Of a stretch of DNA of 64,000 nucleotides, positions 29,793 to 30,030 are shown in pieces. Source of the stretch: Escherichia phage phAPEC8; the sequence record NC_020079.1; one strand, written 5' to 3'. A program made the translations under genes and the position numbers. Numbering within the stretch: position 1 is the stretch's first letter; every line of letters begins with the position of its first letter. The notes under the pieces are model-generated. The model had not been told where the DNA came from, ran no database searches, and saw only the letters and a program-made list of their open reading frames with translations.

Positions 29793-29963
29793 ATGCGCAA
29801 TTTTGTAGTTAAAAATGATTTTAACCGTTCTTCTTATCATAAAGATAAAAAGAATGATTACACACGGGCTTGGAACTTGGAGGAAGAACTTTATGATGAC
29901 AGAGAAGACTTGGGAAGAGATCCTAGCGGAGGCTCAACCAATGGAAGTGAAGAAGATAGTTAA
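29793..29963 (+). CDS. small acidic hypothetical protein (56 aa)
   Basis: Hand-translated sub-threshold ORF with GAGGAGGA RBS. Confidence 0.3.
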   Translation: MRNFVVKNDFNRSSYHKDKKNDYTRAWNLEEELYDDREDLGRDPSGGSTNGSEEDS

Positions 29964-30030
29964 CAACGCCCCTTCTCTTCCTAAAATAAAATTTTATGAG
30001 AAAGTAGAAGATAATGAATCTAAAGACTAA
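29893..30030 (+). CDS. small hypothetical protein (about 45 aa), alternative frame overlapping the previous ORF
   Basis: Internal ATG-ATG with GGAGGA RBS inside the track ORF 29815..30030. Confidence 0.3.
   Translation: MMTEKTWEEILAEAQPMEVKKIVNNAPSLPKIKFYEKVEDNESKD

Follow-up and report, generated by a model that had tools for sequence, protein, structure and literature searches.

The 64,000-nucleotide (nt) stretch of the Escherichia phage phAPEC8 genome (NC_020079.1; hereafter the window) incorporates two small open reading frames (ORFs), ORF1 and ORF2, which overlap in different frames directly upstream of the spanin genes. Comparison with related phages indicates that these are quite probably two genuine genes with their own translation starts, which share 71 nt and are the orthologues of the phi92 genes gp116 and gp117. 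The initial annotation had considered the pair either a dual-coding segment or an overlap in which only one ORF is real. The coordinates, sizes, Shine-Dalgarno (SD) sequences and out-of-frame overlap of approximately 70 nt that it gave all match the sequence (the overlap is exactly 71 nt), the computed isoelectric point (pI) bears out its description of ORF1 as acidic, and the pair is, as described, followed directly by the spanins (i-spanin at 30014-30406, o-spanin ending at 30641). TerL comes next. The following features can be distinguished:

29793..29963, + strand: ORF1, 56 amino acids (aa), pI 4.6 (ATG at 29793, TAA at 29961-29963), orthologue of phAPEC8_00144 / phi92 gp116
29779..29786, + strand: SD sequence of ORF1, GAGGAGGA, 6 nt before the ATG
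29893..30030, + strand: ORF2, 45 aa (ATG at 29893, TAA at 30028-30030), orthologue of phi92 gp117
29879..29884, + strand: SD sequence of ORF2, GGAGGA, 8 nt before the ATG and within ORF1 codons L29-E30-E31
29893..29963, + strand: dual-coding segment of 71 nt, comprising ORF1 codons 34-56 plus stop and ORF2 codons 1-24

ORF2 is in the +1 frame relative to ORF1 and has a second ATG at 29896. Its N-terminal peptide is (M)MTEKTWEEILAEAQPMEVK, while the tail peptide of ORF1 is DPSGGSTNGSEEDS.

Selection on the two reading frames

The region was gathered from annotated phage records, IMG/VR contigs and metagenome contigs encoding divergent ORF1 or ORF2 proteins. The IMG/VR contigs were found using the neighbouring 98-aa protein as anchor, and their sampling is thus independent of ORF1 and ORF2. 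The core alignment comprises fourteen sequences from approximately ten lineages and is near saturation at synonymous sites (pS approximately 0.7-0.8). All fourteen core sequences carry ORF1 (56-58 aa), ORF2 (44-52 aa), an overlap of 71 or 74 nt and both SD sequences, and with two more distant relatives (L035 and L036) both ORFs are found in sixteen sequences in total. As judged from this alignment, the retention of the overlap and both SD sequences in fourteen sequences near synonymous saturation places both ORFs beyond chance.

Ratios of nonsynonymous to synonymous divergence (pN/pS) were pooled by the Nei-Gojobori method over ten representative sequences, for segments which are short at 19-30 codons each:

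ORF1-only segment: 0.23 in the ORF1 frame and 1.14 in the ORF2 frame
Overlap: 1.37 in the ORF1 frame (bootstrap 0.79-2.93), 0.23 in the ORF2 frame (bootstrap 0.14-0.35) and 0.94 in the third frame
ORF2-only segment: 2.13 in the ORF1 frame and 0.34 in the ORF2 frame

Purifying selection thus moves from the ORF1 frame to the ORF2 frame exactly at the ORF2 start. A per-site minimum-change phase test was only borderline in the overlap (chi-square p = 0.07) because of the saturation, and pairwise pN/pS was used in its place. On this comparative evidence, both ORFs are genes. The alternative that only one of them is real is rejected by the ratios for the ORF1 head (0.23) and ORF2 (0.23 and 0.34), and the dual-coding alternative gains support, with each ORF under purifying selection in its own frame across the relatives. 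Conservation of each frame had been suggested as a check: both ORFs are conserved, but the overlap is asymmetric and the amino acid sequence of ORF1 is not conserved there.

It is hardly conceivable that only ORF1 is a gene and ORF2 a chance open frame. ORF2 belongs to no Pfam or PHROG family, is unannotated in many records and is accompanied by the remark 'weak Prodigal statistics' in the phi92 record. However, pN/pS values of 0.23-0.34 in its frame stand against 1.4-2.1 in the other frame, its SD, ATG and length are kept in the fourteen core sequences and ten of its residues are invariant.

The ORF1 tail within the overlap

The tail of ORF1 is open in every lineage. When the first 23-24 codons of ORF2 were recoded with phage codon usage, the ORF1 frame stayed open to its natural stop in 5-28 % of the trials per lineage. 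T does not occur at the stop-risk third positions of ORF2 in the overlap (0/49), as opposed to 100/147 equivalent positions downstream of the ORF1 stop; A, C and G are all used at these overlap sites, and elsewhere T is the most frequent base in third position. Furthermore, 52 % of the Glu, Lys and Gln codons of ORF2 end in G in the overlap, compared to 19 % further downstream in ORF2 and 21 % of those in late genes (Fisher p = 8e-6 and 7e-9, respectively, for related sequences). A G in the third position of an ORF2 codon is the first position of an ORF1 codon, and there gives Asp, Glu or Gly. For Val19, ORF2 invariably uses GTG, which accounts for 9 % of late-gene valines, and the Glu in the (N/D)GSE ending of ORF1 is thereby preserved. 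This ending is present in all fourteen core sequences. The net charge of the tail is -8 to -13 across all lineages, with similar acidity (-9 to -13) and length in relatives without an overlapping ORF2 (L025, L032-L034, T5p086 and Ro1).

Each frame thus carries its own selection signature across the relatives. It was concluded from these sequence patterns that the overlap is truly dual-coding but asymmetric, with ORF2 keeping its sequence and ORF1 keeping a tail that is open, acidic and fixed in length. As read from the alignments, the constraint on this tail is compositional rather than at the level of sequence, and the tail would be maintained through the synonymous choices of ORF2, namely G-ending Glu and Lys codons, GTG at Val19 and no T before AA, AG or GA codons. 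By the same reading the constraint is reciprocal, as the ORF2 SD fixes synonymous sites in the Leu-Glu-Glu codons of ORF1.

Several points weigh against the interpretation of two genes with a dual-coding segment. The sequences are phylogenetically related, and the counts, Fisher tests and per-lineage simulation probabilities are thus not independent. In the overlap, purifying selection at the level of amino acids is not seen in the ORF1 frame (pN/pS 1.37), and the tail could be a tolerated run-on, while the (N/D)GSE ending is missing from the more distant L035. With regard to translation, a literature search for ribosome profiling (Ribo-seq) or mass spectrometry on these phages (Phapecoctavirus and Justusliebigvirus), or for Ribo-seq of small ORFs in T4, found no usable evidence. 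The putative promoter upstream of ORF1 matches the consensus at 8/12 positions, under the 9/12 threshold of the generic scan, by which it was missed. Finally, AlphaFold2 predictions on the family alignments were of low confidence (predicted local distance difference test, pLDDT, 57 with no secondary-structure elements for ORF1; 67 with one short helix at residues 7-13 for ORF2), and structure thus lends no support to function.

Were the tail an unselected run-on from the purine-rich codons of ORF2, only the ORF1 head and ORF2 would be real and the segment would not be truly dual-coding. The ORF1-frame ratio in the overlap does fall among those of the non-coding control frames (0.94-2.13), the T4-type member of the ORF1 family has no acidic tail at all, and the (N/D)GSE ending, besides its absence from L035, is largely forced by the invariant P-M-(E/V)-V-K of ORF2. 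Such a run-on is nevertheless unlikely, since no more than 5-28 % of cases per lineage would be expected to stay open and yet all lineages are open, T is wholly avoided at stop-risk sites where the other three bases occur, the enrichment of G-ending codons points toward acidity and an acidic tail of like length is kept in relatives without ORF2.

The translation start of ORF2

In the GenBank/RefSeq records of the genus Phapecoctavirus, ORF2 is either omitted or annotated as a 29-aa protein from Met17 (29941-30030). Judging from conservation, the true start is at 29893 and the 29-aa GenBank version is wrong. ORF2 codons 4-16, which precede Met17, show a pN/pS of 0.25 (bootstrap 0.16-0.36), and Ile10-Leu11 are invariant while the underlying codons vary synonymously. 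Met1 is kept, and in most lineages an in-frame TAG, TGA or TAA occurs 0-2 codons 5' of the ATG. A GAGGA sequence is located at -13 or -16 from the ATG (8 or 11 nt upstream) in all fourteen core sequences and in L035. For Glu, the phage late genes use GAG less often than GAA (39 versus 137), and the GAG codon of the ORF2 SD shifts by one codon where a 3-nt indel alters the spacing. No GAGGA precedes the ORF2 start in L036, while in L032, from which ORF2 has been lost, it has decayed to GAAGAA.

Initiation at Met17, as annotated for ESCO5, ASO2A and tuntematon, would limit the overlap to only 23 nt. It is in keeping with the GenBank/RefSeq records, with the invariance of Met17 and with a GGAGG found 8 nt before this codon in the window. 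However, the SD-like sequence before Met17 is not conserved, in contrast to the GAGGA before Met1 in the core sequences. The constraint on codons 4-16, the fixed Ile10-Leu11 despite codon variation, the retention of Met1, usually with a stop just 5' of it, and the full-length form annotated in phi92 also argue against the 29-aa protein, which is very unlikely to be the correct form.

Predicted expression of the pair

Two further elements precede ORF1:

29702..29733, + strand: intrinsic terminator-like hairpin and T-run, read from the sequence, between the 98-aa ORF and the ORF1 unit
29742..29771, + strand: putative sigma-70-like promoter (TTGCAA, 18-nt spacer, TAAGAT; extended -10 TG at 29763-29764)

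The -35-like and TGnTA(A/T)GAT blocks of the promoter are kept across the main lineages with a variable spacer, and the pattern has a single match within the window. Another candidate from the scan, an internal promoter at 29960-29987, was rejected as it is absent from other lineages. The record MZ726793, which is 99.9 % identical, lists the hairpin as a rho-independent terminator (TransTermHP/WebGeSTer).

A single mRNA probably starts from this promoter approximately 15 nt before ORF1, near 29778 and right after the terminator. Ribosomes would load independently at the SD at 29779, producing the 56-aa soluble ORF1 protein, and at the SD at 29879, producing the 45-aa soluble ORF2 protein. Those translating ORF1 would cross the SD and ATG of ORF2 and continue for 23 codons. 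As the ORF2 SD and ATG lie inside ORF1, the two outputs are proposed to be mechanically linked, in either direction. Shuffled controls fold as well as the predicted transcript (29776-30060; z = -0.61), and no Rfam family matches the segment.

The ORF1 SD of the relatives is AGGAGGA or GGAGGA. In L026 (Logan SRR17326406; positions ~240-270), a 16-nt deletion between two ATATG repeats removes this SD and places the ORF1 ATG 5 nt past the -10 hexamer, so that a leaderless mRNA is possible; both ORFs are intact in this contig, and the terminator sequence of 29702-29733 is conserved.

Production of an ORF1-ORF2 fusion protein by programmed +1 frameshifting or transcriptional slippage is extremely improbable. 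ORF2 does lie in the +1 frame of ORF1, which is open from 29815 in the window, a 78-aa protein (P0008) in a Logan assembly joins ORF1 residues 1-19 to the ORF2 frame, and a natural in-frame fusion has arisen by deletion in L032. However, the stops 0-2 codons 5' of the ORF2 ATG allow no upstream fusion in most lineages, ORF2 is provided with a conserved SD and ATG of its own, and the region has neither a conserved slippery motif nor a stimulatory RNA structure (fold z -0.6, no Rfam match). The upstream stops and the independent SD together effectively rule out a frameshift fusion, and the locus does not have the properties of a frameshift cassette. The P0008 fusion results from a 1-nt deletion in GATAAAAAG, which corresponds to the A5 run at 29847-29851 of the window, and reflects either a sequencing error in the homopolymer or a natural mutant in which ORF1 is disrupted. 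Efficient slippage requires a run longer than A5.

Protein families and predicted properties

ORF1 matches phrog_15229 over its full length (E = 7.4e-38, 130 bits; residues 1-56 on profile positions 1-56 of 56). Its head (residues 1-33) is basic, with a charge of +4, while its tail (residues 34-56) has a charge of -9. The first ~25 residues, MRNFVVKNDFNRSSYHKDKKNDYTR, match small proteins of T5-like, T4-like, Vequintavirinae and other phages, which share the N-terminal motif M-R/N-N-F/L-V-A/V-K-N/H-D/N-F-N-R/K-A/S-S-x-H-K/R-D-K-K, and the N-terminus of the ORF1 family cross-matches phrog_5724, phrog_4586, phrog_1359 and PF23876. Against Pfam DUF7230 (PF23876.1), ORF1 scores 15.7 bits (E = 0.017; residues 2-25), below the gathering threshold of 27 bits, and is thus considered DUF7230-like, as the curated threshold of the local model excludes it from membership. 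Among its relatives, a 39-aa ORF of T4 scores 44.9 bits, while the T5-like, L025 and Ro1 proteins score 21.6-24 bits. Many close orthologues of ORF1 carry a precomputed PF23876.2 match. No function is recorded for any of the DUF7230-like relatives of ORF1, and a literature search found no paper mentioning DUF7230.

The 39-aa T4 ORF, MNNLVAKHNFNKASVHKDKKKAFKESNRKQKHKGKVYDY (L012:1501-1620, MT984581), is unannotated, has an SD and is located between arn.1 and arn, overlapping the end of the former and the start of the latter; it matches phrog_1359 (E = 5e-23) and is a bona fide DUF7230 member. In Klebsiella phage vB_Kpn_AM_K6 (L028:1501-2505), an annotated 334-aa protein begins with a DUF7230-like head and a T5p086-like acidic tail, and its C-terminal part corresponds to a gene annotated separately as 'exonuclease/metallopeptidase' in T5-like phages. 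The 334-aa protein represents either a gene fusion or a mis-annotation.

ORF1 could alternatively act in cis as a leader peptide, whose conserved first ~33 residues would fill the exit tunnel at the moment when the ribosome covers the SD and ATG of ORF2 and, through pausing, regulate the translation of ORF2 or the spanins. In keeping with this, conservation of ORF1 stops where the ORF2 initiation region begins, and ORF1-like genes adjoin or overlap the next gene in L025, L032, L034 and at T4 arn. The motif, however, starts at residue 1, farthest from the peptidyl-transferase centre, and is also present in T5-like and Ro1 phages, where a gap separates the gene from the following one, and at the N-terminus of the 334-aa protein. 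These occurrences, together with the maintained acidic tail, fit a trans-acting protein better, and a leader peptide is highly improbable.

ORF2 matched no family in Pfam, PHROG or NCBIfam, and a profile search against 1.84 billion representative proteins returned only seven matches, all of which are close relatives. Its N-terminal segment (TWEEIL..A.PMEVKKIVNNSPSLPK) is amphipathic and conserved, while its end is acidic and variable. Searches of PDB chain sequences with the ORF1 and ORF2 families likewise found nothing, as did NCBIfam for both.

There is no hydrophobic segment in ORF1 (maximum hydropathy, KD(15), -0.93) or ORF2 (0.22), as opposed to the neighbouring spanins (3.09 and 2.33). 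Identity as a holin, antiholin or spanin was rejected, as neither protein has a transmembrane domain (TMD), a lipoprotein signal or a Cys residue. A role of ORF1 in lysis was also considered, given that ORF1-like genes adjoin spanins in L025 and all syntenic relatives. The spanins of these relatives are homologous, and the adjacency is thus one inherited linkage rather than independent evidence; the T4, T5-like and Ro1 contexts are unrelated to spanins, and the role was rejected. Neither protein has a Pfam, NCBIfam or PHROG terminase match, and at 56 and 45 aa with mostly disordered predicted structures they do not resemble small terminase subunits, which are typically >100 aa and contain an oligomerisation core. 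The basic, invariant N-terminus and acidic tail suggest that ORF1 may be a small partner-binding protein. Both proteins are probably accessory, non-structural factors acting by partner binding, of which ORF2 would be dispensable, although confidence in any specific role is low.

Distribution, loss and origin of ORF2

The order 98-aa gene, ORF1, spanins and TerL is shared by distant contigs, and ORF1 is retained in every lineage examined. L035 retains an ORF2 homologue with a 59-nt overlap and an ORF1 without the GSE ending, while L032, L033 and L034 have no ORF2. ORF2 is likewise missing from the still more distant L025, in which the ORF1-like gene directly overlaps the i-spanin and the spanins are not followed by TerL within the locus. 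In L032 (L032:2001-2168; ENA ERZ19036021), deletions of ~82 nt and 6 nt relative to the close ORF2-bearing relative L015 have fused the ORF1 head in frame to the old C-terminal tail of ORF2 and removed the conserved ORF2 core. L033 and L034 adjoin ORF2-bearing lineages in a coarse neighbour-joining tree of the flanking proteins, which has no bootstrap support. From this distribution, ORF2 appears to be ancestral to the group and to have been lost at least three times. Such repeated loss marks it as an accessory gene.

A tentative scenario, for which the odds are rather against than in favour, is that ORF2 is a young gene which arose by overprinting on an old, widespread gene of DUF7230 type, across its compositionally simple acidic tail and the short junction between ORF1 and the spanin. 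Its frame may then have become the dominant constraint in the shared DNA before the gene was lost at least three times. In support of overprinting, ORF2 has only seven close relatives while the ORF1 family spans four phage groups, and L025 lacks ORF2. Acquisition of ORF2 by other routes is possible. If overprinting did occur, the locus would represent a compact natural case of how an overlapping gene is born, fixed and lost in large virulent coliphages.

Comparison with known systems

The direct orthologues gp116 and gp117 of phi92 (Justusliebigvirus, NC_023693) occupy the same place, between gp115 and the Rz-like spanin and upstream of TerL. They likewise overlap by 71 nt, each with its own ribosome binding site, and both are annotated as hypothetical proteins. 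Amino acid identity between phi92 and the window is ~58 % for ORF1 and ~70 % for ORF2 (first 34 residues). The phi92 RefSeq record annotates gp117 at its full length of 48 aa, in contrast to the 29 aa or nothing in the genus of the window. The DUF7230 proteins, such as T5p086 (78 aa) and the T4-type 39-aa ORF, resemble ORF1 in being small, with the N-terminal motif and mostly with a basic head and acidic tail. They differ in that their tails are unrelated in sequence and that they lie in other contexts, namely the arn region of T4 and the early region of T5. None of these relatives has an ORF2-like gene over its tail, and ORF1 has a separate PHROG.

As in the overlapped or embedded Rz/Rz1 spanins and the overlapping genes of phiX174 and MS2, a single stretch of DNA is read in two frames from separate starts, and the downstream spanins of the same window represent a textbook out-of-frame overlap. 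Unlike Rz/Rz1, neither ORF1 nor ORF2 carries a membrane or lipoprotein signal, and their overlap is of tail over head between two independent small soluble proteins. The second gene of an out-of-frame overlap is often missed or truncated by gene callers (PMC6139136). The pair is an ordinary kind of phage gene overlap, already annotated in phi92, and no new kind of system. It follows for annotation that ORF2 of Phapecoctavirus genomes should be given as a 45-aa protein starting at 29893, and ORF1 can be tied to the DUF7230-like small proteins of T5, T4-like and rV5-like phages. The locus also provides a clean, small case of asymmetric dual coding through the skewed synonymous codons of the partner. 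Single changes that are silent in one frame abolish the other, and fully separable knockouts are thus possible, which would ease the study of the roles of two conserved, uncharacterised small proteins.

Genomic context

Many Escherichia phages of the genus Phapecoctavirus (phAPEC8-like, subfamily Stephanstirmvirinae) match the 1.4 kb around the locus at 99-99.9 % identity, with lower-identity matches in Justusliebigvirus (phi92-like) and Klebsiella phages. The 1.4-kb query matched 155 records, of which 122 cover at least 80 % of it. Records named 'Campylobacter phage' A145, A110a, C3 and A150 are 98-99.5 % identical to Escherichia coli Stephanstirmvirinae in this region, as are 'Acinetobacter phage vB_AbaM_ABPW7' and 'Serratia phage KKP_3264'. 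These names suggest mislabelled hosts or contaminating phages. The neighbouring genes are as follows:

27143-29148, + strand: tRNA gene cluster of eleven genes
29356..29652, + strand: 98-aa ORF, orthologue of phAPEC8_00143 / phi92 gp115, which precedes the unit and lies outside the overlap
30014..30406, + strand: i-spanin (Rz-like) with an N-terminal TMD, KD(15) 3.09; Rz-like spanin in RefSeq relatives
30297/30315..30641, + strand: o-spanin in an overlapped architecture, lipobox LMMTGC; annotated as o-spanin in ESCO5
30651..32726, + strand: TerL, the next gene in the same orientation, Pfam Terminase_6N (E = 5e-17), with structural genes downstream

An Rfam match to RyhB at 29235-29289 (29.4 bits, below the gathering score of 55 bits) is most likely nothing more than the terminator hairpin after the last tRNA gene. 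The product of the 98-aa ORF, with the N-terminus MPKLKRGRGRPTAEMQQIYAM, belongs to phrog_3330, a PHROG of unknown function. It is labelled 'terminase small subunit' and 'RNA polymerase sigma factor RpoS' in one record each, and neither label is supported, as the Pfam and NCBIfam matches are sub-threshold only. The start of the i-spanin overlaps the end of ORF2 by 17 nt, and the o-spanin likely starts at 30315 (MQKLILAVCLALPLMMTGC).

TerL contains an apparent mini-intein of ~159 aa at residues 43-201 (window 30777-31253), within the Walker A loop. The insert has no match among Pfam and PDB sequences, the call being a reading of motifs, and the Pfam Terminase_6N match begins only at residue 202. 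The insert reads CVSAETEYL...SMEH...DHCFVTGN and is flanked by YGGAAG and SGKSRLLL; its excision would restore the canonical GxxxxGKS as GAAGSGKS.

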